24,000 bases of DNA, taken from Endomicrobiales bacterium (GTDB lineage: Bacteria; Elusimicrobiota; Endomicrobiia; Endomicrobiales; CAWCFT01). The DNA lies in the NCBI GenBank assembly GCA_963794945.1, contig CAWCFT010000012.1, positions 56,286-80,285 on the forward strand. The letters are read 5' to 3'. Under the pieces are notes generated by a model, which did no database searches, was not told the DNA's origin, and was given only the letters and a program-made list of their open reading frames with translations. Positions 1,787 through 21,161 of the stretch are shown here, one piece after another (the stretch's first letter is position 1; each line of letters opens with the position of its first letter). A program made the position numbers and the translations under genes.

Positions 1787-1857
1787 GTGAACTTCAAACC
1801 AGCGAGCTTTACAACAAAGGTGTTGAGCTTTTTGGACAGGGTAACTATGAAGAAGCA

Positions 1858-2454: not shown

Positions 2455-2520
2455 CATCGCTTCATTCCGCTGTTTACATGGCGCAATGCCTAAATTAATA
2501 AATCCACAATGGAGGATATT

Positions 2521-3516: not shown

Positions 3517-3540
3517 GTTGTTAAAAAAATAAAGTGACCA

Positions 3541-3559
3541 TATTGCATATACTGCAATA
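3541..3559. repeat. Perfect 7+5+7 inverted repeat TATTGCA-tatac-TGCAATA
   Basis: Read directly from the sequence. It sits 11 nt upstream of ATG 3570 and has no T-tract after it. Confidence 0.5.
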
Positions 3560-3569
3560 GTAACTAACA

Positions 3570-4010
3570 ATGAAGATAGTCAATACTTTCGGCAGTTACC
3601 GTCATAAACTTAGAATTATCCTGCCTTTGATGCTGGTTTTATGCGCCCTATTGGGATGGGCGGTGTTAACTGCTGTCTCGAGAATTAACAACGAGTCAAA
3701 AAATGACAGTGTAGAGATATGCCTGGATTGGGACGAGGTTTGCAGCCTGTGCGCATTGAACAATTATGCCATAAGCGATTTTCTTGAAAGAAGCAGGGCG
3801 ATAGGCGTAACCAGTGTAGCTATTGCAGAAGAGAATTTGTCAACACTATCGGGGTCAGGGAAGATAATATATTTTTCCGGGCCAGAATATTCAAGGGCCA
3901 AGCTGCTGGATATTGTCGCACAGGGCGGCATGGTTTCAGAACAACCTGATCGCTTCGCAAGACCAGAGCAGCTTAAAATACATATCCGGTATTCTTCAGG
4001 CCAGATATAA
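3570..4010 (+). CDS. Polytopic membrane protein, N-terminal fragment (frame break at CAGAAC 3937-3942)
   Basis: N-terminal TM anchor LRIILPLMLVLCALLGWAVLTAV followed by a soluble domain. The tail after ...AQGGMVS reads as out-of-frame sequence and overlaps the next ORF. Confidence 0.6.
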   Translation: MKIVNTFGSYRHKLRIILPLMLVLCALLGWAVLTAVSRINNESKNDSVEICLDWDEVCSLCALNNYAISDFLERSRAIGVTSVAIAEENLSTLSGSGKIIYFSGPEYSRAKLLDIVAQGGMVSEQPDRFARPEQLKIHIRYSSGQI

Positions 4011-5295
4011 CATAAGTTCTAAAATACAAAAAGCCGGTAAATATTATCTTCTTACGCCCTCGGTGGACACCACATTCATCCCTCCATTTTGGAGCGAGAG
4101 CATGCCGTTAGGATTTTCAAGAGACAAACAACTCTTCTTGGCTACTAAAGACCTTAAGACAGTTTACAGGATACAAGATGCCTGCAATCCTGCGTGGATA
4201 AGTCAGATATCAACGGAGAATGTTTCAGGCATTATGTGGGACAGCCCCGTGGTGCCGGGTTATGAGGGAAGAGAACATGACCTTTCGGATATTATAAGCG
4301 AGAAACGGATCAAGTACATAAGCATGGAATTCTGCGCTGTGTCGGGGGAAGACTATGTCGAGAGGAGTATCCCCGGCCTTCTTGTACGAGGTCACCAAAT
4401 AAACGAAGCTGAACTGGGGCACAACCAGGAATCGGTTTTCTGGCTTTCCAGATGGATGCGTGCTGTAAAAGAAAGAAGCATAAGGTTCGTTTATTTTCGT
4501 TTCTGGAAGAACAGGTCAATCGAAGATAATATGAGCTATCTGCGTTCAACAGCAAAGAATTTCAAGGATGCCGGCTACAAGCTTGATACGGCAAACCCTC
4601 CGGATTATCCTTCACATGGCAGGCTTGGTTTTTGGAAAATATGCGTGTTCCTAACCGCTGTACTAATTCCGCTGCTGGGGCTGAAAACCGCTCTCAAGAG
4701 AAACAATTTCATGTATTCGTTCGCGGCAGTGAACGCGGTGAGCCTGTTTGGCGGAGTACTTATATCAGCGATGCTTTATGACGCTTATTTTATGCAGAAG
4801 ATGGCCGATGTGCCTATGGTCAGGATAATATTTTTCATACCGCTGATGCTTTCGGTGTTCATTTTGTTTAGGTGGGAACAATTGAAGAATTTCTGGAACA
4901 CAAGGCTCGAGATAAAGCACTTTATCATAGCCGCGGCCATTCTGGCGGTTGGGGCTGTATTGCTTATCCGCTCCGGCAACAACGCGGCCGAATGGATGAC
5001 GCCGGACCAGGGGTTGCGTGAGTTCCTGGAAAATCTTTTGTTCGTAAGGCCCAGGACAAAGGAATTTCTGATAGGACACCCTCTGCTGCTGCTGGGTTTT
5101 TATCTAAAAAATCCGTGGCTTATACTTGCCGGAATGGTTGGGCAGGTCTCAGTACTAAATACATTCCTACACGCGCACTCGCCGCTCGCGGTTTCATTGA
5201 CAAGAACAGTCTTTGGCATGATCTTTGGATTTATTATAGGTGTTATTTTTATAGAACTTTATAAAGTAATAAGGGCACATATCGTAAAGAAATGA
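3913..5295 (+). CDS. Polytopic membrane protein, main part (possibly the DUF5693-type partner of CsaB)
   Basis: A soluble region is followed by at least 6 hydrophobic helices (ICVFLTAVLIPLLGL, FAAVNAVSLFGGVLISAMLY, IIFFIPLMLSVFILF, IIAAAILAVGAVLLI, LLLLGFYL..WLILAGMVG, VFGMIFGFIIGVIFIEL). The stop overlaps the csaB start (ATGA). The family name is recalled from csaB neighbourhoods and not verified. Confidence 0.6.
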   Translation: MSHRAAWFQNNLIASQDQSSLKYISGILQARYNISSKIQKAGKYYLLTPSVDTTFIPPFWSESMPLGFSRDKQLFLATKDLKTVYRIQDACNPAWISQISTENVSGIMWDSPVVPGYEGREHDLSDIISEKRIKYISMEFCAVSGEDYVERSIPGLLVRGHQINEAELGHNQESVFWLSRWMRAVKERSIRFVYFRFWKNRSIEDNMSYLRSTAKNFKDAGYKLDTANPPDYPSHGRLGFWKICVFLTAVLIPLLGLKTALKRNNFMYSFAAVNAVSLFGGVLISAMLYDAYFMQKMADVPMVRIIFFIPLMLSVFILFRWEQLKNFWNTRLEIKHFIIAAAILAVGAVLLIRSGNNAAEWMTPDQGLREFLENLLFVRPRTKEFLIGHPLLLLGFYLKNPWLILAGMVGQVSVLNTFLHAHSPLAVSLTRTVFGMIFGFIIGVIFIELYKVIRAHIVKK

Positions 5296-6335
5296 AAATA
5301 CTTATTTCGGGCTACTACGGATTTGGCAATGCGGGCGATGAGCTCATCCTTGAGACTATAGCCACAGAGCTGTTTTCGAAAAGAGATGATATCGAGCTTA
5401 CAGTTCTTTCTGTAAAGCCGCATGAAACCTCCACAAGGCACAAATTACGAGCTGTCAGCAGATGGAACTTTTTCAAGGTGGTCCGCGAGATAATTCGCTG
5501 CGATGTTCTGCTCTCGGGCGGCGGCGGGTTGTTCCAGGACAGTACCGGGAGTAAGGGCCTATATTATTATCTGCTGATCATTCTATTTGCAAAGATACTC
5601 GGCAAAAAGGTTTATATTTATGGAGCCGGCGTAAACGACCTTAAGTACGTAAACAGGATATTCATCACGTGGGTGTTCAAGCTTGCGGACGGCATAACGG
5701 TTCGGGAAAGCGATTCATCAAACCTCCTTGTAAAGTGGGGGCTGCCTAAAGACAGGATAACTGTTACAGCTGACCCTGTCATGCTTAAAGAGGTTAATAT
5801 AGAAAAACAACACAGGGACGAGCCTACGGTTGTTTTTATACTGCGTCCTCCCGCTAAATCGAAATGGCGCGCTGAACTTTTCGCCAAACTGGCTGACGCG
5901 ATATGCCAGAGGCTCAAAGCTAAACTCGTTTTTATGCCTTTTCATCCGGAACACGACGCCGAATTCTCAGTTTGTGTGATGCACCTTATGAAGGCCAAAG
6001 CCACGCTGGTAAGGTGGAATAAATTCGATGATATCTATGACACTATAGGCAAAGCGGACCTTATCATAAGCCAGCGGCTTCACGGCCTCATACTAGCGCT
6101 GTTGTACGGGGTCCCACTTATAGGTATATCCGATGACGCAAAGATAGACCGTTTCTTAAAGGAACTTGGCCAAAAAAATATTTCACACATGACAGAAGAA
6201 AATTACTATTCTGTGCTAGCGGTTATACTCGATATGTGGGAATGGCGAGAGGAATTCAAAAAAACAGCCAAGAAGATCCTGCCGGATTTTAAGATGAGAG
6301 CGAAAAAGAACTCGGAACTGCCTTTTACCTGCTGA
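5292..6335 (+). CDS. csaB: Polysaccharide pyruvyl transferase CsaB
   Basis: MKILISGYYGFGNAGDELILETI, LLSGGGGLFQDSTG, YIYGAGV and SQRLHGLILALLYGVPLIGI match the CsaB/pyruvyl-transferase pattern. Confidence 0.8.
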   Translation: MKILISGYYGFGNAGDELILETIATELFSKRDDIELTVLSVKPHETSTRHKLRAVSRWNFFKVVREIIRCDVLLSGGGGLFQDSTGSKGLYYYLLIILFAKILGKKVYIYGAGVNDLKYVNRIFITWVFKLADGITVRESDSSNLLVKWGLPKDRITVTADPVMLKEVNIEKQHRDEPTVVFILRPPAKSKWRAELFAKLADAICQRLKAKLVFMPFHPEHDAEFSVCVMHLMKAKATLVRWNKFDDIYDTIGKADLIISQRLHGLILALLYGVPLIGISDDAKIDRFLKELGQKNISHMTEENYYSVLAVILDMWEWREEFKKTAKKILPDFKMRAKKNSELPFTC

Positions 6336-6373
6336 AACCAGCCGCTTCTAACAGCATTTACCGTTTTACGCTG

Positions 6374-6402
6374 TTTACAAATCAGCCCAAATATTCTATA
6401 AT
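6374..6402 (+). promoter_or_regulatory. Sigma70-like promoter (TTTACA-N17-TATAAT)
   Basis: TTTACA at 6374-6379, a 17 nt spacer, and TATAAT at 6397-6402, in the csaB/ftsX-like intergenic region. Confidence 0.4.
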
Positions 6403-7182
6403 TTGAATGTAAAAACTGTCTATTTTTCAATAAATACACAAATATGCCAAACAGAACCTCTTTTTAATTCAAAAGTAATGCTCGCTGTTGGAACGGTGTT
6501 CACAACGGCGCTGCTTGCTTTTGCTTTTAACGCATATCGCCAAGCCAGCCTTTTCAATAAATCCTTTTTACCTGAGGCCAAAATAGCGGTTTTCATCGCG
6601 CCGGACTGCAAGTCGGCACCAGAAGTTATACTGGAAAAACTCGTCAACCTTGACGGAGTAGAAAAAGCCGATTACATGCCAAAAGAGAAGGTGCTGGAAA
6701 AGGCTCAGTTTGAGAACTCTAAACTAAAGAACGTGATACTGTCCGGAGAAAACCCTTTTTCGCCATACTATATTATCACTCCAAAGACGGTCAGCGTTTT
6801 GTCGGCTCAAAAGCTTAAAGAGAAAGTGGATAGGATCGAAGGCGTTGAAGAGGCGGCATTTGATGATAATCTGTTTTCCGCTATAGAGAAAACAGGTAAG
6901 TTCGCTGACATATATAAGATATGCGGGAAGATAGCCGCAGCGGCCATTCTTCTTATCGTGGCGGCAAAATTCATTTTCAGATGGTTTAATGAAGAAGCAG
7001 ATTTTCTCGGCTATCTGTACAACATACTAATAGGGGCCGTTTCGGGAGCTGTAGGGGCAGGGCTGTTCTATCTTATAATTGCGGAACTGGCGAGAACGGA
7101 TGTTCTTCGGATGCCGGCGAAGTACTTCCTGTACCTGACTTTTGGCGGTATTTTGACGGTAATGTTCTGGGAAAACGATTGA
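6403..7182 (+). CDS. FtsX-like cell-division permease-family protein (reduced; start uncertain)
   Basis: Topology is TM1 (AVGTVFTTALLAFAF), then a ~130 aa extracytoplasmic domain (LDGVEKADYMPKEKVLEKAQ...ENPFSPYYIITPK...IEGVEEAAFDD), then 3 C-terminal TMs. It sits directly upstream of the EnvC-like and Ctp genes. The track's TTG start at 6403 abuts the predicted -10 box, so ATG 6444 (needs a frame correction) or ATG 6478 is more likely. Confidence 0.5.
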   Translation: MNVKTVYFSINTQICQTEPLFNSKVMLAVGTVFTTALLAFAFNAYRQASLFNKSFLPEAKIAVFIAPDCKSAPEVILEKLVNLDGVEKADYMPKEKVLEKAQFENSKLKNVILSGENPFSPYYIITPKTVSVLSAQKLKEKVDRIEGVEEAAFDDNLFSAIEKTGKFADIYKICGKIAAAAILLIVAAKFIFRWFNEEADFLGYLYNILIGAVSGAVGAGLFYLIIAELARTDVLRMPAKYFLYLTFGGILTVMFWEND

Positions 7183-8030
7183 AATACACGAATATCTGTG
7201 TTCTCATGATCATGTTCATTTCTGCGGCAACTGCGTACCCGACCACCGGTGGGCAGTACAAAAAGGAGATCGAGAGCAGTTCAAAGAGCCTTCAGGAACT
7301 GCAGAAGAGCATTAAAGAGAAACGAATAGAAAAAGAAAAATGCCTGCTCGATGAAAAATGCATTAGATCAGAGCTTTCAAAAATAGACAGGGAACTCTCC
7401 CGGCTTCAGAAAAAAGGAGAGGCGCTTAAGAAAGAAATAAAAAAATCCGAGAAAATGCTGGTTCAATCAGAAAAAGAGCTTAAGCTCGCGGGTTGGGAAA
7501 AACAACAATGGGTAAACGCGCTTGACCTAGAAGCGAACAAATGGTTCCAGGTTCACCACGGGTACAATACGCTTTTCAAGGACAACATAACCGAGCACAT
7601 GCGTTTTGAGGCGATGCTGCAGAAGAGGTCGTATGTAGGCAACGCTTTAAATAAAGAATCGATGTCCAGACAGGCAATATCGAAATGGCAGACAGCCGAA
7701 GCAAGGCTCGTCGAATTAAAAGCTCAGCAGGAAAAAACGCTTCAGGATGAAGCCGGCGCCAAGGATCAAAAGAAAGCGCTGCTCAACACAACTATAGGAA
7801 AACGAATAGCCGCTGAAAACGAGATAACAAAACTCACTGAAACATCCAAGGCCCTCGAGCAACTGATAATCAAGCTGGAAAAAGAAAGAAAGAAGACAGA
7901 ACTGGAAGCGCAGGAAAAGAAAAAATTTAAAGAAAAGAAGAAGCACCTTCCGTGGCCAGTAGCTGGAGAAATAGTAGTAAAATTCGGTAAGAACAAACAC
8001 CCAGAACCTGGATACGTATATAATATCTAA
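7179..8030 (+). CDS. envC: EnvC-like murein hydrolase activator, signal peptide plus coiled-coil part (frame break at 8002-8007)
   Basis: Signal-like N-terminus KYTNICVLMIMFISAATAYP. About 230 aa of Lys/Glu-rich coiled coil. LPWPVAGEIVVKFGKNKHP is the typical entry into a LytM/M23 domain. Confidence 0.7.
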   Translation: MKYTNICVLMIMFISAATAYPTTGGQYKKEIESSSKSLQELQKSIKEKRIEKEKCLLDEKCIRSELSKIDRELSRLQKKGEALKKEIKKSEKMLVQSEKELKLAGWEKQQWVNALDLEANKWFQVHHGYNTLFKDNITEHMRFEAMLQKRSYVGNALNKESMSRQAISKWQTAEARLVELKAQQEKTLQDEAGAKDQKKALLNTTIGKRIAAENEITKLTETSKALEQLIIKLEKERKKTELEAQEKKKFKEKKKHLPWPVAGEIVVKFGKNKHPEPGYVYNI

Positions 8031-8032
8031 CG

Positions 8033-8314
8033 GTGTCAAGATTAAGGCCGCCGCTAATTCAGAACGTTAAAGCCGTTAGCCGCGGTGAAGTTCTTTTTTC
8101 GGGGGAATTCAGATCGTACGGGCAGATGATCGTTATAGATCATGGCGGCGGATTTTACACTATATACGGCCAGCTTAGCGAGCTATACGTGCAGGAAGGC
8201 CAGAAAGTTCAGGAAGCGGCGGTTATAGGTAAACTTGGGGCCGATCAACCGATATTGTATTTTGAAGTGCGTTCAGAAAATAAGGTGGAAGACCCTGAAC
8301 TTTGGCTAAAATAA
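8033..8314 (+). CDS. envC: EnvC-like protein, degenerate LytM (M23) domain part
   Basis: VKAVSRGEVLFSGEFRSYGQMIVIDHGGGFYTIYGQL...VQEGQKVQEAAVIGKLG...PILYFEVRSENKVEDPELWL is an M23 fold. The metal ligands are lost: NGVKIK replaces HxGxD and ILYFEV replaces HLHFE, as in EnvC/NlpD-type activators. Confidence 0.75.
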   Translation: MSRLRPPLIQNVKAVSRGEVLFSGEFRSYGQMIVIDHGGGFYTIYGQLSELYVQEGQKVQEAAVIGKLGADQPILYFEVRSENKVEDPELWLK

Positions 8315-8351
8315 ATAAGTCGATAATTATTAGTGCTGACCTGGAGGAAAA

Positions 8352-9242
8352 ATGAAGGTGTTCAAGAAGATCTCGTTAGTGTTGTTGGTCGCGACTTTGT
8401 CGTTAAGTATCAGCTATTCTGTAAGTACGCCTGTTAAGGCTACGGTAGATAAAACCTACGAACAATTGAAGCTCCTTGTGGACGTCATGGGGCTAATACA
8501 GGAAAGTTATGTCGAGCCCAGGGACAGCAAGGTGCTTATAGTCGGCGCTATCCATGGCATGGTAAAAACGCTCGACCCGTTCTCTCAGTTCATGGAGCCT
8601 GAGGCTTATAAGGAAATGAAAACCGAGACCGAAGGCCAGTTCGGCGGGCTTGGTATACGTATATCGGAAAAGAACGACTGGCTGACAGTTATCACACCGC
8701 TCCCCGGCACTCCGGCTTACAGGATTGGGATACTTCCGGATGATAAGATAGTTAAGATCGAAGGCAAAAGCACCCAGGGCCTTTCAACGGACGACGCGGT
8801 AAAGCAGCTCAGGGGCGCACCTGGGACAAAGGTAAACATAACCATAGCCAGAGAAGGCGAGAAAGAATTGCTAGATTTCAATATTACCCGCGAAGTGATC
8901 AAGATCGAAACTATACGTTCAAAGATGTTGACTTCCGACATTGGGTATATTCAGCTTACGGAATTTAGCGCGAGCAGCGACAGGGATATGGGTAAGGCGC
9001 TTGAAGACCTTCAGAAGGCCGGCATGAAAGCGCTGGTGCTCGACCTGCGAAATAACCCCGGCGGGCTGCTTGACGTAGCCGTTGACGTATGCAAAGAGTT
9101 CATAGGTGACGGAAAACTTATAGTTTACACGCAAGGCCGCAATCCTGACAGCCGCAGGGAATATTTATCCCCGGGAAAGGCTCCTTATAATAATTTGGCG
9201 ATGGTAGTGCTTGTCAACAGGGGGTCAGCTTCCGGGTTCTGA
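8352..9242 (+). CDS. ctpA: S41 carboxy-terminal processing peptidase, N-terminal part with PDZ domain (frame break at 9236-9241)
   Basis: GGAGG at 8343-8347. Signal peptide [26 protein letters not shown]-like [52 protein letters not shown]. The ORF ends inside [10 protein letters not shown]. Confidence 0.85.
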
Positions 9243-9630
9243 GATCGTAGCAGGCGCGATACAGGACTTAAAGCGCGGGCTTATTATGGGTACTACAACT
9301 TTTGGCAAGGGGAGCGTGCAGTCGATATTTCCTTTCCCGGATGGCAACGCCTTAAGGCTTACTACGGCGAAATATTACACTCCTTCAGGCCGCAGTATAC
9401 ATCGGGACGAAAAGACCGGCAAGGGCGGCATATCGCCGGACATAATCATTGAAGTGCCCAGGGAAACAGAGGCCAAGCTTTATATGCAGTCCGAAGAAGT
9501 GTTCCCTCCCGGGAAAACACCGGAGTCCTCAGTAAAAAAACAGGACAGGGTGGAAGACGTCGTGCTCCAGCGCGCGGTAGAAATATTGAACGCTCGGGAT
9601 GTGTTGTCTAAACTCAACGGCGGCAAATAG
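9211..9630 (+). CDS. ctpA: S41 carboxy-terminal processing peptidase, C-terminal part
   Basis: [33 protein letters not shown]...[17 protein letters not shown] contains the catalytic Ser-motif remainder and the catalytic Lys (TFGKGS). Confidence 0.85.
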
Positions 9631-9685
9631 CCCTGGGCAAGTCTTCCCAAGTGAGAAAGATAAATATCTTAGCTCAAATGGAGCA

Positions 9686-10816
9686 ATGTTTACGGAATAC
9701 ATGAGCGGTCAAAAAGGCTTCATTAAAATATTTTACATTATCGCTCTTTTCTTTCTGGGAGTCCTTATATGGGGATTTTTCCAGAGTAAAACAGGGAATT
9801 TGTCAGGATCTTCTGTTGCGCTTGACAGCGAGTTGACGGACGCGCTGACTGGCGCTGGTTTTACCAATTCCGATATTGTCAGCCAGTCGCGAGAAGAACG
9901 CAGGTCAGGCACATCGGTGTGGGTAGAATACTACCGAGAGCTTAAGCTTAATAACAATGTAAAGCTTTCTGAACTTGAAAACAATGTCCGGCTTCTCGCC
10001 AAAAAGCACAACTATTCGTTCATTAAGTCACACCCTGCAAACGATAAAGTAAGCTATGAGCTGTTTAACGACAAGAAACTATTTTCAAAGATAATTCTGG
10101 ATACGCCTAAGCCTGAACCCGAGCCGCGCGCGCAAGCACATGGGTTGAGGATAGCCGTAGTTATCGATGATGTCGGCTACAAAGATAACCTGGGGCCTTT
10201 CCTTGATCTCGGGATACCGTTAACTTTCGCCATCCTGCCCTACGAACATTTTTCAAAACAAATAGCGGCTGAACTTTCAAAAAAGGGCATGCCATATATT
10301 CTGCATCTCCCGCTTGAGCCCGAGCAATACCCTAAAGTTGACCCAGGGAAAGCCGCGCTGCTTGTTAAAATGACCAGCCAGGAGATAGAAAAGAAATTTC
10401 TTTCCGACCTTTCGGCGGTGCCAGGCGTGGTTGGCGTCAACAACCACATGGGTTCGCGCTTCACATCTAATCCGGAAAAGATGAGGGTACTTTTAAAGCT
10501 TATAAAAGATAAGAACCTTTTCTTTTTTGACTCGGCTACCAGCACTGCAACAAAGGGCGGCATGGTTGCGCGGGAGATAGGTATACCGTTCGAAGAGAAC
10601 AGCATGTTCGTCGACCTCAAAGATGACCCGGTGTTCATGGATAAACAGTTCAAAGCGGCGCTTAGGAAAATAAAGAGATACGGGCAATGCGCTGTCATAG
10701 GGCATATACATAAGAAGTACATGCCGGCGGCTTTAAAGTCGGCGATGGCTCTTTATAAAGAGAACGGCGTTCAATTTGTTTATCTTACGGATATCATACC
10801 GGCAGCAAAAAAATAG
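9686..10816 (+). CDS. Divergent polysaccharide deacetylase family protein (YibQ-like)
   Basis: N-terminal TM FIKIFYIIALFFLGVLIWGFF. IAVVIDDVGY, PLTFAILPY, HLPLEP and NNHMGSRFT match the YibQ family pattern. The track start at 9599 lies inside the ctp gene. ATG 9686 and ATG 9701 are the first non-overlapping in-frame starts. Confidence 0.75.
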   Translation: MFTEYMSGQKGFIKIFYIIALFFLGVLIWGFFQSKTGNLSGSSVALDSELTDALTGAGFTNSDIVSQSREERRSGTSVWVEYYRELKLNNNVKLSELENNVRLLAKKHNYSFIKSHPANDKVSYELFNDKKLFSKIILDTPKPEPEPRAQAHGLRIAVVIDDVGYKDNLGPFLDLGIPLTFAILPYEHFSKQIAAELSKKGMPYILHLPLEPEQYPKVDPGKAALLVKMTSQEIEKKFLSDLSAVPGVVGVNNHMGSRFTSNPEKMRVLLKLIKDKNLFFFDSATSTATKGGMVAREIGIPFEENSMFVDLKDDPVFMDKQFKAALRKIKRYGQCAVIGHIHKKYMPAALKSAMALYKENGVQFVYLTDIIPAAKK

Positions 10817-10824
10817 TTGTTTAG

Positions 10825-11865
10825 ATGTCGGGAACGGGTAAATTTAAAACAATGCTGATATTCGCGATAGAGACATCTTGTGACGAAACCGCGGCTTCCG
10901 TAGTAAAAGACGGGGATTCGATCCTTTCCAGCGTTATATCTTCACAGATACCGATACACAAAAAATATTCCGGAGTAGTACCGGAACTAGCCGGCAGGGC
11001 CCATATAGAGAACATAAACTCCGTTATGGGCGGTGCCCTAAAAGAAGCCGGAGTGTCTCTTAAGGATTTTTCGAAAAAGGTATCGGCTATATGCTACACC
11101 CGGGGGCCGGGCCTCGCGGGCTCGCTTCTTGTGGGGCAGGTAGCCGCGCAGACTCTTTCGCTGGTCACGGGTGTACCAGCGGTCGACGTCAACCACATCG
11201 AGGGGCACATGTACGCTTGCCTGCTTGAACACCCCGGCCTAAAACTTCCTTATCTAGCCCTCACCGTTTCCGGGGGGCACACAGAACTTACAATAATACA
11301 GGATTTTGGCCGATATAAATATTTGGGCGGGACAAGGGACGACGCCGCTGGCGAAGCTTTCGACAAAGTCGCTAAGCTTCTTAAACTCCCTTATCCCGGC
11401 GGGCCGGCCATCGACAAGCTCGCGCGGACCGGAGATCCGGAAAAGATCAATTTTACAAGGCCTTATATGTGGGGAACATGGGACTTTTCGTTCTCCGGTA
11501 TAAAAACCGCCGTGGTCAACGAGGTAAGGAAAAATAGCTCGCTGAAGGTTAAGGATATATGCGCCGCTTTCCAGCGAGCTGTCGTTGAAACCATAGTGAA
11601 AAAAACACTGGCTGCCGCGAAACAGTACGGGCTTTCAAGAATAGTTTTAGGCGGCGGTGTAGCGGCGAATTCTGAGCTGCGCAGTGAACTCTCGCGGGCC
11701 GCAAAAAATGATAGCAGGGAAGCATACCTCCCGTCGCCATGGCTCTGTACCGATAATGCCGCTATGATAGCCTGCGCAGGGTACCATAAATTTAAGAAAT
11801 TGAAGGGCGCGATAGCGCCATTTAGGGATATCGATCCCGGGCTTACGCTTAGAAACTGGAACTAA
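10825..11865 (+). CDS. tsaD: tRNA N6-adenosine threonylcarbamoyltransferase TsaD
   Basis: IFAIETSCDETAASVV, VNHIEGH, SGGHTEL and GGTRDDAAGEAFDKVAKLL..PYPGGP. The true start may be ATG 10852 (MLIFAIETSCDET). Confidence 0.92.
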   Translation: MSGTGKFKTMLIFAIETSCDETAASVVKDGDSILSSVISSQIPIHKKYSGVVPELAGRAHIENINSVMGGALKEAGVSLKDFSKKVSAICYTRGPGLAGSLLVGQVAAQTLSLVTGVPAVDVNHIEGHMYACLLEHPGLKLPYLALTVSGGHTELTIIQDFGRYKYLGGTRDDAAGEAFDKVAKLLKLPYPGGPAIDKLARTGDPEKINFTRPYMWGTWDFSFSGIKTAVVNEVRKNSSLKVKDICAAFQRAVVETIVKKTLAAAKQYGLSRIVLGGGVAANSELRSELSRAAKNDSREAYLPSPWLCTDNAAMIACAGYHKFKKLKGAIAPFRDIDPGLTLRNWN

Positions 11866-11866
11866 A

Positions 11867-12856
11867 ATGCAAATAGGCAACGTAAAACTTTCTAATAACC
11901 TGATAATGGCCCCTATGGCAGGTGTGACGGACATACCGTTCCGCACGCTTGCAAAAGAAGGCGGGGCGGGGCTTGTCTGCACCGAGATGATCTCGGCCAC
12001 GGCGCTTGTTTACGGCGACAAAAAGACAAGAAAGCTTATGGGGATTGCCGCTGCCGAACGGCCGATTAGCGTTCAGATATTTGGTTCAAAACCATCCCAG
12101 ATGGGGGAAGCCGCTAAAATAAGTGAAGACGAGGGAGCTGACATAGTGGACATAAATTTCGGCTGTCCTGTTAGAAAGATAGTTAAAACAGGCGCCGGGT
12201 CGAAAGCCGTCGAAAACGAAAAGATCGCGGCGGATATCATGGAAGCCGTAGCGAAGAAGATAAAGGTTCCTGCAACAATAAAAATAAGGATAGGAAGCAC
12301 ACCGGAGCAAAACATAGCACCCGCAATGGTGCAGCTTGCCGAAAAGTGCGGCATAAAAATGGTCACCGTGCATGCGAGGCCTGTTTCATGGGGGCACACA
12401 GGAAAACCTAACCTGTTGGCCGTAAAAGAAGCTGTTTCGGTGGCCAGGATACCGGTAGTGGGCAACGGCGGCATAACGGACGAGCTTTCAGCAAAAGAAT
12501 TTATAGAGCAGACAGGATGCAGCGGCCTAATGATCGGGCGCGCGGCTATAGGCGACCCTATGATTTTTAACAGGATCGAGCAATATTTGAAACACGGCGA
12601 GAAACGCCGCGGGGCAACAATGGAGGACAGGCTCGCGTTCCTCAAGAGGCACGCGGTTCTGTCCTGTGCACAATACGGAGAAAAAACGGGCATAATAATT
12701 CTAAGGAAGGTCGCCTCATATTATCTTAAGGGATTGCCAAATGCTTCGAAGATAAGGGACAGGTTCAACAAGCTGACGAAACTTTCAGAGTTAGACGCGC
12801 TTCTGTTGGGTGTTTGGGAATCGCCATATTTCGCCGAGGCCGTTGATTTTGAATAA
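11867..12856 (+). CDS. dusB: tRNA-dihydrouridine synthase (DusB/NifR3 type)
   Basis: LIMAPMAGVTDIPFR, VQIFGS, DINFGCP, TVHART-like VTVHARP and GNGGI. Confidence 0.88.
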   Translation: MQIGNVKLSNNLIMAPMAGVTDIPFRTLAKEGGAGLVCTEMISATALVYGDKKTRKLMGIAAAERPISVQIFGSKPSQMGEAAKISEDEGADIVDINFGCPVRKIVKTGAGSKAVENEKIAADIMEAVAKKIKVPATIKIRIGSTPEQNIAPAMVQLAEKCGIKMVTVHARPVSWGHTGKPNLLAVKEAVSVARIPVVGNGGITDELSAKEFIEQTGCSGLMIGRAAIGDPMIFNRIEQYLKHGEKRRGATMEDRLAFLKRHAVLSCAQYGEKTGIIILRKVASYYLKGLPNASKIRDRFNKLTKLSELDALLLGVWESPYFAEAVDFE

Positions 12857-12877
12857 TGACAATTGATCGGAGACATT

Positions 12878-13546
12878 ATGAAAGGACATTGCGCTGAGCC
12901 AGGAAGATATTCCAGACAGGGGTTTCCCGAAGCTATATACGGAACGGGAAAAACGCCGGAACAGATAGTATCCATTGCAAAAGAGCTTGCGCGCGGGACA
13001 GGACCGGTAATAGTCACACGTATTGATGAAAATGTATTCAAAAAGATAAAAAGATGTTTCCCTGGCGCTAAATACAGCAAGGTGGCAAGGCTGGCTGTAA
13101 TAAAACAGCTTAAACTCTTAAAGCTGAGCTTAGTCGAGGAACGTTATATTTTTGTGATAACGGCTGGGACTACCGATATCCCGGCGTCCGAAGAAGCGGC
13201 TTTAACGGCAGAAGCTCTTGGCAACAGGGTTGAAAGGATTTACGATGTAGGCGTGGCAGGCGTCCACAGGCTGCTTGCACATGAGGGCAGGCTGAAAAAA
13301 GCTTCTTGCGTGATAGTCTGCGCAGGCATGGAAGGGGCTCTCGCAAGCGTTGTCGGGGGGCTCGCGGGCTGCCCGGTAATTGGTGTGCCGACTTCGGTCG
13401 GCTACGGGGTATCTTTCGGAGGAGTATCGGCGCTAATGTCTATGCTGAACTCCTGCGCGGCGAACGTGTGCACGGTCAATATCGATGACGGTTTCGGGGC
13501 CGGAGTCATCGCGAGCCTTATCAATAAGGGCGGAGAAAAAAAGTGA
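12878..13546 (+). CDS. larB: Nickel-pincer cofactor biosynthesis protein LarB (PurE-like NaAD carboxylase/hydrolase)
   Basis: GFPEAIYGTGKT, VITAGTTDIPASEEA, VGVAGVHRLL, VCAGMEGALASVVGGL..PVIGVPTSVGYG and NIDDGFGAG. GGAGA at 12869-12873 precedes ATG 12878; the track uses TTG 12863. Confidence 0.82.
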   Translation: MKGHCAEPGRYSRQGFPEAIYGTGKTPEQIVSIAKELARGTGPVIVTRIDENVFKKIKRCFPGAKYSKVARLAVIKQLKLLKLSLVEERYIFVITAGTTDIPASEEAALTAEALGNRVERIYDVGVAGVHRLLAHEGRLKKASCVIVCAGMEGALASVVGGLAGCPVIGVPTSVGYGVSFGGVSALMSMLNSCAANVCTVNIDDGFGAGVIASLINKGGEKK

Positions 13547-14271
13547 AAATAGCATATTTTAATTGTTCGGCGGGCGTCGCAGGAGACATGATAATAGCGT
13601 CCTGTATCAGCTCGGGACTTTCCGCAGAACTTCTCGAGAAAAACCTAAAAGACAAACTCCATCTCGGGGGCTGGGACCTCGAGGTTACGCAGGTAACAAA
13701 AAAGCATTTCCCAGCTGTGCATGTTGATGTGGCCGGCAGAATAAAGTTCGGTTCGCCTGAGAAGATGAAAAGCATAATCATTAAAAGCGGCTTAAGCGAA
13801 GCGGTCAAGGCTAGAAGCCTCAAGATAATGGATACGCTTATAAACGCCGAGGCCAAGGTGCATAAGCTTCCTCCCGAAAAGGTACATTTTCACGAAATTA
13901 ATTCGATAGACACGTTAGTCGATATTACAGGGGCTTCACTGGCATTCGATATGTTAGGCATAGGCGAGATATACGCTTCGCCGCTCAACCTCGGCAAACC
14001 CGCTCCCGCGACGGTGGAAATATTGAAATCGAAAGGCGTACCCGTATACTCATCAAACCCGCGCGTAGAAATGACAACTCCGACAGGCGCGGCCATAATG
14101 TCAACCGTAGCCAAAGCTTTCGGCCCAATGCCGGAAATGAAAGTAGAGAGTTCAGGCTCCGGCGCCGGCACGTTCGAATTTGAAGATACGGCCAATATCC
14201 TCGGCATGCTCGCGGGGCCTCAGATAACAAAAGCGCCCCCCGGGACGCTGCAACGCCAACTGACGAGGTAA
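13543..14271 (+). CDS. larC: Nickel insertion protein LarC, N-terminal (LarC1-like) part
   Basis: GTG start overlaps the larB stop (GTGA). MKIAYFNCSAGVAGDMIIASCISSGL, VHFHEINSIDTLVDITGA, TTPTGAAI. The tail after ...GMLAGPQITKAPP is out of frame. Confidence 0.8.
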   Translation: MKIAYFNCSAGVAGDMIIASCISSGLSAELLEKNLKDKLHLGGWDLEVTQVTKKHFPAVHVDVAGRIKFGSPEKMKSIIIKSGLSEAVKARSLKIMDTLINAEAKVHKLPPEKVHFHEINSIDTLVDITGASLAFDMLGIGEIYASPLNLGKPAPATVEILKSKGVPVYSSNPRVEMTTPTGAAIMSTVAKAFGPMPEMKVESSGSGAGTFEFEDTANILGMLAGPQITKAPPGTLQRQLTR

Positions 14272-14297
14272 TAGTAGTTGAAACAAATATAGACGAT

Positions 14298-14645
14298 ATG
14301 GACCCTAGGATATACCCATTCGTGATGGAAAAACTTTTTTCCTGCGGCGCGAAAGATGTATGGTTCAATCAGGTGATTATGAAAAAAGGGCGCCCGGGAA
14401 TAATCCTGTCTGTCATATGTTCAAAAGAAGTCCAAAAGAGCGTCACGGATATACTATTCAGAGAAACAACAACATTGGGAATAAGAAGCCACGTATGCAG
14501 CAGGCATGTGTTAAAACGAGACGTCGGAGGCGATAAAAAGACTGCCTATGTGCCCGGAGCGAAGCCTCGCGTAAAGTCGGAATTCGAGAAAGCAAAGCTT
14601 CAGGCCATAAACCAGAAAAAACCTCTTAAAAACATATTAATATAA
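14298..14645 (+). CDS. larC: LarC, C-terminal (LarC2-like) part
   Basis: Frame 3 is open from 14184 and reads ...DEVIVVETNIDDMDPRIYPFVMEKLFSCGAKDVWFNQVIMKKGRPGIILSVIC...FRETTTLGIRS, the conserved LarC C-domain. Confidence 0.8.
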   Translation: MDPRIYPFVMEKLFSCGAKDVWFNQVIMKKGRPGIILSVICSKEVQKSVTDILFRETTTLGIRSHVCSRHVLKRDVGGDKKTAYVPGAKPRVKSEFEKAKLQAINQKKPLKNILI

Positions 14646-14722
14646 AAAAGAATGGCAAAATAAACAGTAAATGACTAAAATATCATATGCCGCATTAATT
14701 TTGCGCACGGAGGGAATTGCAA

Positions 14723-15493
14723 ATGCTTGATTTACTAACGTTATTCGGATTCAGCCTGGGCCTTGGCGCGGTGTATCTTGTGATGTACTGGGGCGGAACA
14801 AGCCACCTGCTTTGGAACAGGGACGCGGCCGTACTCGTGTTTGGCGGTACCTTCGCATCGATGCTTATATCATCCCAGCTTGAGACCGTCCTCAGGCTTC
14901 CGAGAGCGCTTGTAATAGTTTTATTCAAAAAAAAGACATACGAACCGCAGGAGATAATCGGCATGATGGTGAACTTCGCCGAAAAGGCTCTCAGGACCGG
15001 TGTGGATTCTCTTGGGGAAGATGTTGAAGGCATAAAAGACAGGTTTCTCGCGGACGGCATCGGCATGGTAATAGATGGTTTAAGTCCGGAAATTGTAAGG
15101 GAGAACCTGCTTAAAGAGATCACATTCATACGTAAGAGGCATTACCACGTAAGCAATGTCATACGCTCGATGGGCACCTACTCACCTATATTTGGACTGC
15201 TCGCCACATTGCTCGGAGTCGTACAGGTGTTAAAGAGCATAAGCGACCCTAAGAGCCTCGGAACTTCAATGGCTATAGCGGTAACTGGTACGTTCTACGG
15301 TATCGCGTCCGCTAACTTCCTTTACCTGCCGATAGCCAACAAACTTGACGCCCACACCGATTCAGAACTTCTAGTAAAAGAAGTCATGATCGAAGGTATT
15401 CTCTCAATCCAGGCCGGGGAAATGCCGATAATCGTAGGCAAAAAACTCAGGGCCTTCCTTGCGCCCCGCTTCAGGAACCAGAAGGAAGCATAA
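14723..15493 (+). CDS. motA: MotA/PomA-type stator proton(ion)-channel protein
   Basis: GGAGGG at 14709-14714. Four TMs in a 2+2 arrangement with a ~100 aa cytoplasmic loop. TM3 is YSPIFGLLATLLGVVQVL. TM4 is AIAVTGTFYGIASANFLYLPIANKL, with the conserved Pro and Tyr-Gly. Confidence 0.8.
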   Translation: MLDLLTLFGFSLGLGAVYLVMYWGGTSHLLWNRDAAVLVFGGTFASMLISSQLETVLRLPRALVIVLFKKKTYEPQEIIGMMVNFAEKALRTGVDSLGEDVEGIKDRFLADGIGMVIDGLSPEIVRENLLKEITFIRKRHYHVSNVIRSMGTYSPIFGLLATLLGVVQVLKSISDPKSLGTSMAIAVTGTFYGIASANFLYLPIANKLDAHTDSELLVKEVMIEGILSIQAGEMPIIVGKKLRAFLAPRFRNQKEA

Positions 15494-16158
15494 TGGCGAT
15501 TTACAGCCGCAGATCTGCGGACGAAAGCAACGAGCCAAGCAAAACCACGAATTTGTGGCTGATCATTTATACGGACATGATCAGCAACTTGATGATATTT
15601 TTCCTCATGCTTTACTGCCTGACATGGCTTAAACCCGAAGACAAAACGCTAGCCGCTGCGTCATTCAAAGAGGCTTTCGCAGGAGAGAAGAAAGCTGTTG
15701 GAGAAGCCGAAAAGGATATCGAAAAAGGCCTCGACAAGGATAAAAGCGTTGAAGGCAAGCTGAGAGAAGAATTCTCGAACGTTGAGGTCAACGAAAAAAG
15801 AATAACTATAGTCCTGCCGAGCCCTGTCTTGTTCGATTCCGGCAGCGCTGTCCTGAAAGACGAAACGAAAAAGACGATCCACGATTTCGCCGAGATCATA
15901 AGAAGCCTTAAGAACAAGGTAGTGGCGGAAGGCTATACTGATGATAAACCTATAAACACCGGTCAGTACGCTTCGAACTGGGAATTGTCCTCCGCGAGAG
16001 CTTTCAGCGTTATAAAATACCTTACAGAAGAAGAACACATTGACCCAGGCCGCCTTTCGGCTTTCGGGTACGGTGAGTTCAGACCAAAAGTGCCGAACGA
16101 CACTGAAGAGAACCGTGCAAAGAACAGAAGAATAGAGATAAATATCATAAAGGGCTGA
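15493..16158 (+). CDS. motB: MotB-type stator protein with OmpA-like peptidoglycan-binding domain
   Basis: TAATG overlap with motA. LWLIIYTDMISNLMIFFLML carries the conserved TM Asp. OmpA-like EGYTDDKPI...SNWELSSARA...GYGEFRP...NRRIEINI. Confidence 0.8.
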   Translation: MAIYSRRSADESNEPSKTTNLWLIIYTDMISNLMIFFLMLYCLTWLKPEDKTLAAASFKEAFAGEKKAVGEAEKDIEKGLDKDKSVEGKLREEFSNVEVNEKRITIVLPSPVLFDSGSAVLKDETKKTIHDFAEIIRSLKNKVVAEGYTDDKPINTGQYASNWELSSARAFSVIKYLTEEEHIDPGRLSAFGYGEFRPKVPNDTEENRAKNRRIEINIIKG

Positions 16159-16162
16159 AATA

Positions 16163-16874
16163 ATGGGTATTTATAATTCCAGCAACGGCAGGGCTATAGA
16201 TCACAGGGTAAAAAGGATAGACACGTCCGAACTGTGGATCGTACCGTACGCAGAACTTCATGACAGTGCTTATGATATTGTTCCTTATATTATTCGTGTT
16301 CGCGTATACTTCTAAACAGGACAAGCGGTACAACCAGATAATGGTGGCTATACAATCGGAAATGGGGGGAACGATCAAAAAAGACGTCCTCGATCAGATG
16401 AAAGACACGGAACGGACGGAGCAAACCGTATTGAAATTCGACGAAATGCTTGAGAATCAGAACCTGACGAAATACGTTTCGGTGAGCTATGATACTGAGC
16501 AGATAAAGATCGTTATGAAAAACCCCGTCCTGTTCGATATCGGTCAAGTGGGGCTCAGGAAGGAATCCGAAGCGATATTGCATGAAATGGCAAGCATTCT
16601 TAAGCTTACGGATAACGAAGTTGTTGTGGAAGGGCATACCGACAATATTCCCGTGGTTGGCTCGGGCAAGTACAAGTCTAACTGGGAGATTTCCCAGAGC
16701 AGGGCCATCGAAGTCATAAGGTATTTTACCAATGTAGAAGGGCTTAACCCCAAAAGGTTCGGCGCCGCGGGTTACGGTGAATTTAAACCGGTTTTCCCGA
16801 ACGATACGCCTGATCACAGAAGCCAGAACAGAAGGATTGAGATAGACGTATTAAGGGGAAAAGCAACAGAGTAA
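16163..16874 (+). CDS. Second MotB/OmpA-like stator protein (frame break at 16251-16256; the track shows only 16260..16874)
   Basis: ATG 16163 in frame 2 gives MGIYNSSNGRAIDHRVKRIDTSELWIVPYA. Deleting one A in gcaGAACttc gives WIVPYADFMTVLMILFLILFVF, the MotB consensus. The C-terminus is EGHTDNIPV...SNWEISQSRA...GYGEFKP...NRRIEIDV. Confidence 0.75.
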
Positions 16875-16941
16875 TATACTACGTTACTTGCAGACTACGA
16901 TTACCGCGCATCCAGCCCGCATTAAATAATTCCAAAAAGAC

Positions 16942-16969
16942 TTGAAATATCAGAATAATCTGTTATATT
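16942..16969 (+). promoter_or_regulatory. Sigma70-like promoter (TTGAAA-N16-TATATT)
   Basis: TTGAAA at 16942-16947 and TATATT at 16964-16969, 30 nt upstream of GGAG (16989-16992) and ATG 16999. Confidence 0.35.
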
Positions 16970-16998
16970 TATCATACAAGCCCCAATTGGAGCGAAAA

Positions 16999-17373
16999 AT
17001 GCCTGAAAATGAAATAGAAAAAGAACTCTATCCAATCCCGTTACTGACGGAGCAGGAAAACGACCAAAAGATCATCGATTCGCCGGAGATGATCGTAAGG
17101 GACCTGCTTAAAACAGAGAAAGACATCGCTCTTGAGACCCTGCGGCTTATGCGTTCGAGGTATGAGAAAGAACGACTTGAGTGGGAAAAACTCTATGGCG
17201 GGAAAGAGAATGAAATAAATAACCTTAAGAAGAAGCTTGACGAAAGCGAATCCCGCCTTGGACGCGTAAGAGCGCAGCTCGATGATGAAAAACAAAACCT
17301 TGTAGAGGGACTGCGCCAGAAAGGAACAGAATCGAGACCCACCGATTGGCTGACAAGAAAAAATGGGAACTGA
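16999..17373 (+). CDS. Coiled-coil protein, N-terminal part
   Basis: GGAG with a 6 nt spacer before ATG 16999 (MPENEIEKELYP...). The sequence is a charged heptad-like region. The track's TTG 16942 coincides with the -35 box. The ORF overlaps the next one by 28 nt in a different frame. Confidence 0.55.
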   Translation: MPENEIEKELYPIPLLTEQENDQKIIDSPEMIVRDLLKTEKDIALETLRLMRSRYEKERLEWEKLYGGKENEINNLKKKLDESESRLGRVRAQLDDEKQNLVEGLRQKGTESRPTDWLTRKNGN

Positions 17374-18884: not shown

Positions 18885-18930
18885 AAATTATTGTAAAATT
18901 AGACATTTATATATTATTTTAGTAATTTGA

Positions 18931-18960
18931 TTGACTAGTAATTGAAGAATGTGTTATAAT
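18931..18960 (+). promoter_or_regulatory. Strong sigma70-like promoter with extended -10 (TTGACT-N18-TGtTATAAT)
   Basis: TTGACT at 18931-18936, TG at 18952-18953 and TATAAT at 18955-18960, in an AT-rich intergenic region. Confidence 0.5.
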
Positions 18961-18989
18961 ATCAGGCATAAATCAGTTTGGGGAGAAAA

Positions 18990-19112
18990 ATGTTGTCAAC
19001 TTCGGTAAACATCTTCCTTGAAATAAATACTTCAAAAACAAATATAAATAACAACGCTCCCATCCCCCATGGGAGCGTTTATTTTTTGCTCAACAGGAAT
19101 ACTAATGTATAA
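18990..19112 (+). other. 40-codon leader-like ORF or small RNA that contains the terminator hairpin
   Basis: GGGGAG at 18980-18985 lies 4 nt before ATG 18990. The ORF reads MLSTSVNIFLEINTSKTNINNNAPIPHGSVYFLLNRNTNV. It runs through the hairpin at 19056-19076 and ends at 19112, overlapping ATG 19105 of the next gene. Confidence 0.3.
19056..19087 (+). terminator. Rho-independent terminator-like hairpin
   Basis: GCTCCCAT (19056-19063), CCCCC loop, ATGGGAGC (19069-19076), followed by GTTTATTTTTT. Confidence 0.6.
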
Positions 19113-19299
19113 GATACTTGTTATCGATGATGAACCCGGTATACTTGACCTTTGCCATAGGGTTCTGACCCAGGAAGGCCACTCTGTCAGCGTTACATCC
19201 AACGGTGAAGAGGGGTTGGAGCTCATGAATAAGGAATCTTTCGATCTTGTGCTCTCAGAACCTCAGGATGCCCGGAATAGACGGGATAAAACTGCTTAA
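19105..19299 (+). CDS. Hybrid REC-GAF-histidine kinase, fragment 1 (REC N-half; frame break at 19256-19261)
   Basis: MYKILVIDDEPGILDLCHRVLTQEGHSVSVTSNGEEGLELMNKESFDLVLS, then an out-of-frame tail. The track start at 19069 lies inside the terminator stem. Confidence 0.75.
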   Translation: MYKILVIDDEPGILDLCHRVLTQEGHSVSVTSNGEEGLELMNKESFDLVLSEPQDARNRRDKTA

Positions 19300-19684
19300 A
19301 AAGATAAAGGAAACCTGTCCGCAAACTGAGGTGATAATCGTAACAGGACAAGCTACTATAGAAACTGCTGTAGAATCGCTCAAAGGCGGAGCTTTCGATT
19401 ATATACTCAAGCCTTTCAATATTAGCGAACTTATAACAGCGACACAGAAGTGCCTGGACTTCTCAAAACTAAGAAGACAGGAGAACATTTTCCGTGAAAC
19501 CACTTATCTTTACCAGCTCACGCAGGAAGCAACAAGGACGAAATCCGAAAAAGCCCTCCTTAGCTTTATTCTTGAAAGAATGGCAAAAACACTGAACGCA
19601 GAACGCCGGTTCAATATACATGATAGTCCCGAACAACGACAAACTCATCCCGATGGCAACTTTCGGAGATTTCAGCCAGGATAA
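19247..19684 (+). CDS. Hybrid REC-GAF-histidine kinase, fragment 2 (REC C-half and start of GAF; frame break at 19599-19604)
   Basis: LRMPGIDGIKLLKKIKETCPQTEVIIVTGQATIETAVESLKGGAFDYILKPF completes the REC domain, followed by a linker and ...LERMAKTLNA. Confidence 0.75.
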   Translation: MCSQNLRMPGIDGIKLLKKIKETCPQTEVIIVTGQATIETAVESLKGGAFDYILKPFNISELITATQKCLDFSKLRRQENIFRETTYLYQLTQEATRTKSEKALLSFILERMAKTLNAERRFNIHDSPEQRQTHPDGNFRRFQPG

Positions 19685-21128: not shown

Positions 21129-21161
21129 TCCTTGCCCTTTGAGTTAACCTGTCTCATAATT

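Follow-up and report, generated by a model that had tools for sequence, protein, structure and literature searches.

Recurrent frame breaks at CAGAAC in an Endomicrobiales contig are very probably consensus errors at CAGAC sites

Frame breaks in the window and the sequence they share

The stretch of DNA analysed here (24,000 nt, referred to as the window) carries genes for a TPR protein, a membrane protein, FtsX-like and EnvC-like proteins, an S41 peptidase, LarC, a second MotB, a further long ORF and a sensor kinase, all of them affected by one or more breaks of the reading frame (Table 1). An initial annotation had located seven breaks on the hexamer CAGAAC or its reverse complement GTTCTG, each mended by the loss of one A. 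All seven proved to be real, each being the point of changeover between two long open frames, but they are not the full set; we identified an eighth at 6452 and three more (at ~1738, ~14250 and ~17331), none of which is on the hexamer. Eight of the 11 breaks thus lie on CAGAAC/GTTCTG, seven in the + orientation and one in the - orientation. As these hexamers make up 0.6% of the window, the probability that at least eight of 11 breaks would coincide with them is ~1e-11 to 1e-16, according to the tolerance used, and chance co-localisation is far exceeded.

Table 1. Sites of frame breaks in the window and the reading obtained on removing or restoring one base
Feature	Position	Strand	Gene	Reading after correction
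missing base in AACAGAGAGC	1733..1742	+	TPR protein, 720 aa in relative	
CAGAAC, extra A	3937..3942	+	DUF5693 membrane protein	TCA GAC, S-D
CAGAAC, extra A (eighth site)	6452..6457	+	FtsX-like gene, codons 3-5	AAC AGA CCT
CAGAAC, extra A	8002..8007	+	EnvC-like M23 peptidase	CCA GAC, P-D
CAGAAC, extra A	8060..8065	+	EnvC-like M23 peptidase	TCA GAC, S-D
GTTCTG (reverse-oriented motif), extra T	9236..9241	+	S41/CtpA peptidase	GGG TCT GAG, G-S-E in GSASGSE block
missing base, probably CAA(A)CG	14241..14256	+	LarC (Ni_insertion) gene	
CAGAAC, extra A	16251..16256	+	second MotB paralogue	GCA GAC, A-D, stator Asp
missing T, GAA(T)TC GAG	17327..17334	+	628-aa ORF	relative reads E-F-E
CAGAAC, extra A	19256..19261	+	REC of REC-GAF-HisKA-HATPase kinase	TCA GAC, S-D, phospho-acceptor Asp (D64)
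CAGAAC, extra A	19599..19604	+	GAF domain of kinase	GCA GAC, A-D (D178)

A recount of the motif gave 15 copies of CAGAAC and nine of GTTCTG, matching the 24 first estimated by hand, together with nine CAGAC and six GTCTG pentamers. Seventeen hexamer copies had been taken to be in frame, with that at 6452 considered ambiguous; 16 do keep the frame, but 6452 is the eighth insertion. One of the in-frame copies, at 13623, lies in an 11-mer (cgCAGAACttc) that is identical to the 11-mer at a broken site. All six + strand cases among the original seven were said to fall as xCA GAA C in the upstream frame, and recomputing the phase gave the same result; five further xCA GAA C sites are translated through as Glu. 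If the eight broken sites are counted as true CAGAC/GTCTG pentamers, the extra base is carried by 8/23 of them in the window, about a third. After correction the density of hexamers falls to 0.67/kb and that of pentamers rises to 0.96/kb, compared with 0.66/kb and 0.89/kb in a relative.

The three breaks found elsewhere are 1-nt deletions, each marked by a tblastn frame switch. In the TPR gene the three-frame reading passes from DPNN to ..AAKYL, and there is a 1-nt alignment gap in the window at 1738; in LarC the switch (14241-14256) is also seen in the three-frame reading, and the Pfam Ni_insertion match is split over two ORFs (profile positions 1-234 and 255-374); in the 628-aa ORF the three-frame reading and the alignment concur with the switch at 17331. 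Since these deletions occurred at non-hexamer sequences, the assembly is error-prone in general.

Repair of the affected genes

Deletion of one A at each of the seven sites (one T at 9236) yielded single ORFs of 574, 377, 425, 236 and 551 aa, and a Pfam scan of the repaired proteins showed domains crossing six of the seven junctions. The matches were to S41 in the peptidase (residues 196-365), to MotB_plug across the junction in the second MotB (21-65), to Response_reg (16-125) and GAF (163-294) in the kinase, and to M23 in the EnvC-like protein (283-372), the last of these taking in the 8060 junction and beginning just downstream of the 8002 junction; DUF5693 matched the membrane protein in two separate stretches. 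Conserved residues return with the repair: REC D64 and GAF D178 are each invariant in 10/10 full-length homologues, and the N[RKG]GSAS[GA]SE block of the S41 peptidase is present in 10/10 relatives. Alignments with homologues run straight through every repaired junction, so that the single-A repair proposed in the initial annotation holds for all seven breaks.

The FtsX-like gene really begins at the ATG at 6443, close to the eighth site. Once repaired, the N-terminus of its protein product aligns with that of its counterpart in the relative.

Comparison with a relative and with other assemblies of the same organism

Two contigs of a relative (L015 and L022), which are probably from short reads because their k141 names are megahit-style, have the same gene order as the window (S41 protein 84% identical) and contain intact all five genes that bear the seven original breaks. 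Gene-by-gene DNA alignment with these contigs placed single 1-nt gaps at 3939, 8005, 8063, 9232 and 16254 (L015) and at 19259 and 19600 (L022), within a few bases of all seven original sites. The relative has a 573-aa membrane protein gene in synteny with the repaired 574-aa ORF, and its proteins read H-P-D-L, N-S-D-V and Y-A-D-F at the counterparts of 8002, 8060 and 16251, respectively. A TsaD search of GTDB genomes identified distant relatives only (≤57% identity), which provided the taxonomic placement of the window but no DNA useful at the sites.

We also compared the window with two further assemblies of this organism, ENA ERZ25039472 contig_76518 (L019; 98.8% identical across 5365-16757, 66 substitutions) and a Logan assembly of run ERR11523656 (L020; 99.87% identical across 1738-8002, four substitutions). 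The Logan contig and the window probably share their reads, making the former an independent assembly and not independent data. Between them these assemblies lack the extra base at five of the eight sites. The ENA contig reads CAG-AC at 6455, 8005 and 8063 and GGG-TCTG at 9237, with an S41 gene intact at 425 aa whose product is identical to the repaired window protein but for three residues in a noisy stretch. The Logan contig reads CAG-AC at 3940 and 6455, and its FtsX is called at 245 aa, equal in length to that of the relative; at the first of these sites, however, the T at 3936 has been dropped as well, leaving the Logan contig itself out of frame. At a sixth site, 16251, the ENA contig has one base fewer than the window, yet reads CGCGAAC in a noisy stretch. 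Comparative support at 19256 and 19599 comes from relatives and homologues; when the REC-GAF N-terminus was used as a protein query for fragments of this organism over these two sites, only the window's own fragment (P0133) came up.

The other assemblies have errors of their own. At 14408 the ENA contig reads GTTCTG where the window reads GTCTG, a reciprocal error, and therefore one error type strikes different sites in different assemblies. The Logan contig has homopolymer miscounts (T3/T2 and A8/A7), and the two ends of this k-mer-based contig, 1738 and 8002, coincide exactly with two error sites of the window.

Codon phase and flanking bases

The initial annotation had noted that the affected CAGAC sites favour one codon phase (6/7, versus 0/6 in other phases). 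An excess remains in our counts, but is weaker: six of the seven xCA GAC sites are affected versus one of eight in the other phases (p=0.01), since 6452 lies in another phase. As a discriminator, phase is roughly matched by a pyrimidine at +2, two bases past CAGAC, which occurs at 7/8 affected versus 4/15 unaffected sites (p=0.009, without correction for multiple testing). No longer or bipartite motif dividing the two classes was clear within ±24 nt, the +2 pyrimidine being the best single feature, and the codon-phase excess is not fully accounted for. A crude scan for the same artefact at other MAG loci (L007, L009 and others) gave antisense junk matches only, and recovered just four of the eight known sites when applied to the window.

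Origin of the extra base

We consider it very likely that these breaks are a recurring long-read consensus error in which CAGAC is written as CAGAAC, the genes being intact and the hexamer no recoding signal. The initial annotation, too, preferred to read the breaks as single-base insertions made in a particular context, at what are really CAGAC/GTCTG sites, during basecalling or consensus building, and this reading is borne out by the homologues that align across the junctions, by the assemblies without the extra base and by the reciprocal error at 14408. As both orientations are struck (the site at 9236 being reversed), the cause acts on the DNA or on the signal and not on translation. The window is part of a metagenome-assembled contig (96,082 bp, deposited in NCBI and ENA), apparently from long reads only, of an uncultured Endomicrobiales/Elusimicrobiota-like bacterium whose own genes are presumably unbroken, and its consensus would gain an A (T on the opposite strand) at about one in three CAGAC/GTCTG sites, which turns them into CAGAAC/GTTCTG and shifts the frame by +1. 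Which sites are struck may be a matter of the bases around them and of accidents of read depth or polishing, with no part played by translation. We infer a nanopore-type platform, and an error introduced where the model of a basecaller or polisher handles the k-mer badly, possibly due to chemical modification of the motif in the organism.

It is very improbable that the insertions are genuine, with a mutational hotspot adding an A at CAGAC to create real pseudogenes. They are present in the deposited sequence, and motif specificity on both strands would suit a lesion or an enzyme acting on double-stranded DNA; however, the lesions are not reproduced in other reconstructions of the genome, the extra A being missing from them at five of eight sites and present elsewhere in one, and all affected genes are whole in the relative. 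Eight insertions and three other indels per 24 kb would moreover knock out conserved, likely important functions, including FtsX, the EnvC-like protein and CtpA. The hotspot left open by the initial annotation is therefore unsupported.

We likewise give little credence to a collapse of co-existing strains, in which real indel variants would have been merged into one consensus. Some diversity is present, as the substitutions in the ENA and Logan contigs attest, but real variants would not take the form of added single A's that break the frame and are limited to one 5-mer, and variants that restore or break conserved genes form a pattern typical of sequencing error. Programmed recoding, by +1 ribosomal frameshifting or four-base decoding of CA GAA C as Asp, is close to untenable, as the initial annotation had anticipated: the phase common to six + strand sites, each of which would yield a functionally required Asp, speaks for it, but the identical 11-mer is in frame at 13623, five xCA GAA C sites are decoded as Glu, the other 16 copies sit in ordinary in-frame context, the motif is reversed at 9236 and in a different phase at 6452, and neither shift site nor extra base is conserved, relatives reading straight through in a single frame, one base shorter at each of the seven original sites, and other same-organism assemblies lacking the base.

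Consequences and a possible modified motif

If the breaks are consensus errors, their value is practical rather than biological. They would split roughly every second or third gene of the window, so that counts of pseudogenes, gene calls and protein families taken from this MAG would be unreliable, as probably would those of its sister MAGs; fragments of such genes are already public in NCBI and ENA (P0035, P0123 and P0133). The pattern provides a simple, testable correction rule, namely that a +1 frame break at CAGAAC is to be corrected by deleting one A.

We tentatively speculate, with rather more doubt than confidence, that an uncharacterised methyltransferase acts on CAGAC/GTCTG, perhaps only where a pyrimidine follows two bases later, and that the modified base distorts the nanopore signal such that an A is inserted. 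Pfam scans of window proteins (a subset of the ORFs) identified no methyltransferase domain, and CAGAC was not found as a methylation or error motif in the literature searched. Were this idea correct, the frame breaks would serve as an indirect read-out of a new methylation motif, in a lineage without a cultured representative.

Comparison with known systems

Like prfB-type programmed frameshifting, the breaks involve a +1 frame change recurring at a short sequence; unlike it, the extra base is without conservation, there are in-frame copies elsewhere, one site is reversed, and the base is absent in other assemblies. The homopolymer-length indels that split MAG genes in long-read-only assemblies (Sereika et al. 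2022; PMC9262707) resemble our sites in being single-base, gene-splitting errors in a long-read MAG, and the deletions at ~14250 and ~17331 are of this ordinary kind; the eight main sites differ from such errors in having a single A turned into AA inside a fixed 5-mer, with no miscount of a long run.

The third comparison is with nanopore consensus errors that are tied to a motif, organism-specific and found at part of the motif copies, which are documented (PMC6591954, PMC11610573, PMC12392509). Examples from bacterial genomes assembled with Oxford Nanopore data are the errors at Dcm CCWGG sites (Wick et al. 2019; PMC6591954) and positions whose ambiguity is specific to a strain (Lohde et al. 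2024; PMC11610573). The methylation-linked errors so described are ambiguities or substitutions (A/G, C/T) and not 1-nt insertions (PMC11610573), whereas here A becomes AA. In other respects the likeness is close: our errors also strike one short sequence, on both strands, in an organism-specific manner and at only a fraction of its copies, vary between assemblies of one genome, and lie mostly within coding sequence.

Frame breaks at CAGAAC/GTTCTG and their repair

The CAGAAC/GTTCTG frame breaks in the window are an assembly artefact: the extra base is missing from relatives and from this genome as reconstructed elsewhere, it is seen in both orientations of the motif, and the same type of error strikes different motif copies in different assemblies. 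The window (G+C 45.9%) carries all of its long ORFs on the + strand, and contains 15 CAGAAC and nine GTTCTG hexamers along with nine CAGAC and six GTCTG pentamers. An open-frame map showed a frame switch at each of seven sites (3937, 8002, 8060, 9236, 16251, 19256 and 19599), and at all six of these on the + strand the incoming frame was xCA GAA C. Deletion of one A per site, or one T at 9236, gave unbroken ORFs (see table), and after this repair Pfam domain matches spanned six of the seven junctions, that at 8002 falling just upstream of the M23 match. The initial annotation had put forward the 24 hexamers, the seven breaks, the shared codon phase and the single-A repair, all of which were borne out, the repair also by the 1-nt gaps found in relatives.

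Indel errors, repaired ORFs and neighbouring genes, in window positions
Position	Change	Gene or product	Gap position in relative	Relative's protein reading	Deposited fragment
~1738 (1733-1742)	1-nt deletion, in AACAGAGAGC	TPR protein			
3937	inserted A	574-aa ORF, DUF5693 membrane protein	3939		
6452	inserted A	FtsX-like protein			
8002, 8060	inserted A at each	377-aa ORF, M23 (EnvC-like) peptidase	8005, 8063	H-P-D-L, N-S-D-V	
9236	inserted T	425-aa ORF, S41/CtpA peptidase with PDZ domain	9232	S-A-S-G-S-E	P0035, front part of S41, 296 aa
12863-14645		LarB-like (AIRC) and LarC-like (Ni_insertion) genes			
~14250 (14241-14256)	1-nt deletion	LarC; Ni_insertion domain divided between two ORFs			
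14717-16874		MotA_ExbB gene, then two tandem MotB-like genes (MotB_plug + OmpA)			
16251	inserted A	236-aa ORF, MotB paralogue, MotB_plug + OmpA	16254	Y-A-D-F	P0123, MotB2 tail
~17331 (17327-17334)	1-nt deletion, GAA-TC-GAG for GAA TTC GAG	628-aa coiled-coil-like ORF		E-F-E	
19256, 19599	inserted A at each	551-aa ORF, kinase with REC, GAF, HisKA and HATPase domains	19259, 19600	L-S-D-L-R, N-A-D-A-G	P0133, kinase tail
21129-24000		ORF >957 aa, running past window end; Kelch beta-propeller repeats, then fn3/Ig-like domains			

A syntenic relative is represented by the contig L015 (ENA ERZ27245406 contig k141_1471116, 588 kb), which, judging by its megahit-style name, probably derives from short reads. 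Its gene order is that of the window (GalT, DUF5693, pyruvyl transferase, FtsX, M23, S41, deacetylase, TsaD, Dus, LarB, LarC, MotA, MotB, MotB, 628-aa ORF, REC-GAF-HK, REC, Kelch protein), and all of these syntenic genes are intact. Aligned gene by gene at the DNA level, the relative has a single 1-nt gap close to each of the seven sites, always within a few bases of it. Both Asp residues of the kinase are invariant in 10 full-length homologues, and the S41 block N[RKG]GSAS[GA]SE was found in 10/10 relatives; together with the gaps, this conservation shows the single-base repair to be correct. The best S41 homologues were metagenomic proteins and Endomicrobiales MAG proteins, and the nearest species representatives by TsaD were Endomicrobiaceae and Elusimicrobiaceae MAGs (56-57% identity).

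Other assemblies of the same organism

The 11.4 kb contig L019 (ENA ERZ25039472 contig_76518, a Flye-style name) matched window positions 5365-16757 at 98.8% identity with 59 gap openings, and is noisy too. It reads CAG-AC at 6455, 8005 and 8063, and GGG-TCTG at 9237, where its 425-aa S41 gene is intact and encodes a protein that differs from the repaired one at only three residues, all within a noisy stretch. Around 16251 the contig is garbled (CGCGAAC) and lacks one base relative to the window, and at 14408 it has GTTCTG against GTCTG in the window, i.e., the CAGAC error in the opposite direction. A real mutational hotspot, which the initial annotation had kept as an alternative, and a collapse of strains are both contradicted by this reciprocal pattern between assemblies and by the implausible lesion load that they would imply in conserved genes. 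Programmed recoding at CAGAAC is excluded, in line with the initial annotation's argument against a translational mechanism, since an identical 11-mer at 13623 stays in frame, five other xCA GAA C sites pass through as Glu, one site is reversed and another is in a different codon phase, and neither relatives nor other assemblies have the extra base.

L020, from a Logan (k-mer) assembly of run ERR11523656, matched window positions 1738-8002 at 99.87% identity and reads CAG-AC at 3940 and 6455. Its run-length errors at 3936, adjoining site 3937 (TTT to TT), and at 6258 (A8 to A7, cutting the pyruvyl transferase to 334 aa from 347) indicate that it was also built from long reads. Both of its ends coincide with window error sites, which fits, and suggests, disagreement among the underlying reads at 1738 and 8002. 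The same run also yielded a sister contig, L021, which over 1.28 kb has no mismatch to the window and a single gap, lying 3 nt short of the contig's end; the window and this run probably share their data, or at least their sample.

Further indels and consensus quality

Site 6452, which the initial annotation had left as ambiguous among the read-through copies, proved to be an eighth insertion: both L019 and L020 lack its extra A, and its removal lets the FtsX-like gene begin with the ATG at 6443 (MPNRPLFNSK...) and line up in register with the 245-aa protein of the relative, at equal length. With three deletions outside the hexamers, there are 11 indel errors in 24 kb, pointing to low consensus quality overall. 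Two of these deletions adjoin CAGAG or CAGAAT, and may or may not be akin to the CAGAC problem; one, if filled, restores GAATTC. As hexamers make up 0.6% of the window and the probability of 8/11 frame breaks falling on them is 1e-11 to 1e-16, varying with tolerance, the observation of breaks on CAGAAC/GTTCTG is real and not due to chance. Hexamer and pentamer densities per kb were 1.00 and 0.62 in the window as deposited, 0.67 and 0.96 with the eight sites moved back, 0.66 and 0.89 in L015, and 0.79 and 0.97 in L019.

Which CAGAC sites are affected

The initial annotation's excess of breaks in one codon phase (6/7 against 0/6) weakened on the + strand to 6/7 in-phase and 1/8 out-of-phase sites (p=0.01), the exception being 6452 (AAC AGA CCT), and a pyrimidine two bases after CAGAC does as well (7/8 affected against 4/15 unaffected sites, p=0.009); both comparisons are post hoc, uncorrected and on small numbers. 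The pyrimidine feature groups the intact in-phase 23830 (CAGACcag) with the unaffected sites and the out-of-phase 6452 (CAGACctc) with the affected ones. Codon phase is plausibly a proxy for flanking context, since in xCA GAC NNN the middle base of the following codon occupies position +2, and four of the six in-phase sites have T there, from Leu, Val and Phe codons after Asp. The L019 error at 14408 (CAGACagg) breaks the rule, so the choice of sites is partly stochastic or pipeline-dependent. No longer or bipartite motif separating affected from unaffected CAGAC was evident within ±24 nt.

Deposited fragments and neighbouring genes

NCBI and ENA hold the window's gene fragments on a 96,082-bp contig, so the split genes are already inside public protein collections, which illustrates how such errors spread into protein databases. 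P0035, P0121, P0123, P0133 and P0180 are artefact fragments deposited as separate proteins. The first ATG of the REC-GAF-HK ORF, at 19069 (MGAFIFCSTGIL...), is probably not its start codon, because all relatives start at the residues matching MYKILVIDDE (19105). The MotA-MotB-MotB arrangement is kept in L015, the second MotB having only ~38% identity to the first MotB gene region. The LarB-like and LarC-like genes overlap by 4 nt, and no LarA or LarE was visible within the window. The relative's version of the Kelch ORF is 1278 aa.

Probable cause and precedents

The initial annotation had favoured a consensus or basecalling insertion at true CAGAC, and the absence of the extra base from other assemblies and relatives, with the reciprocal error at 14408, upholds it. 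For this organism, a nanopore-type basecaller or polisher probably mis-handles the CAGAC context. The CAGAC hotspot as a candidate DNA modification motif is the sole point of some interest here, biological interest being otherwise low; Pfam scans of the window proteins found no methyltransferase domain. Nanopore consensus errors tied to motif and organism are on record (PMC6591954, PMC12392509): Dcm-motif errors made up ~70% of consensus errors (PMC6591954), a methylation-aware Medaka model lowers such errors, and polishing occasionally introduces errors (PMC12392509). We found no A-to-AA insertion at CAGAC in the literature searched; the errors described in the papers cited here are mostly substitutions, whereas those of the window are A-to-AA insertions.
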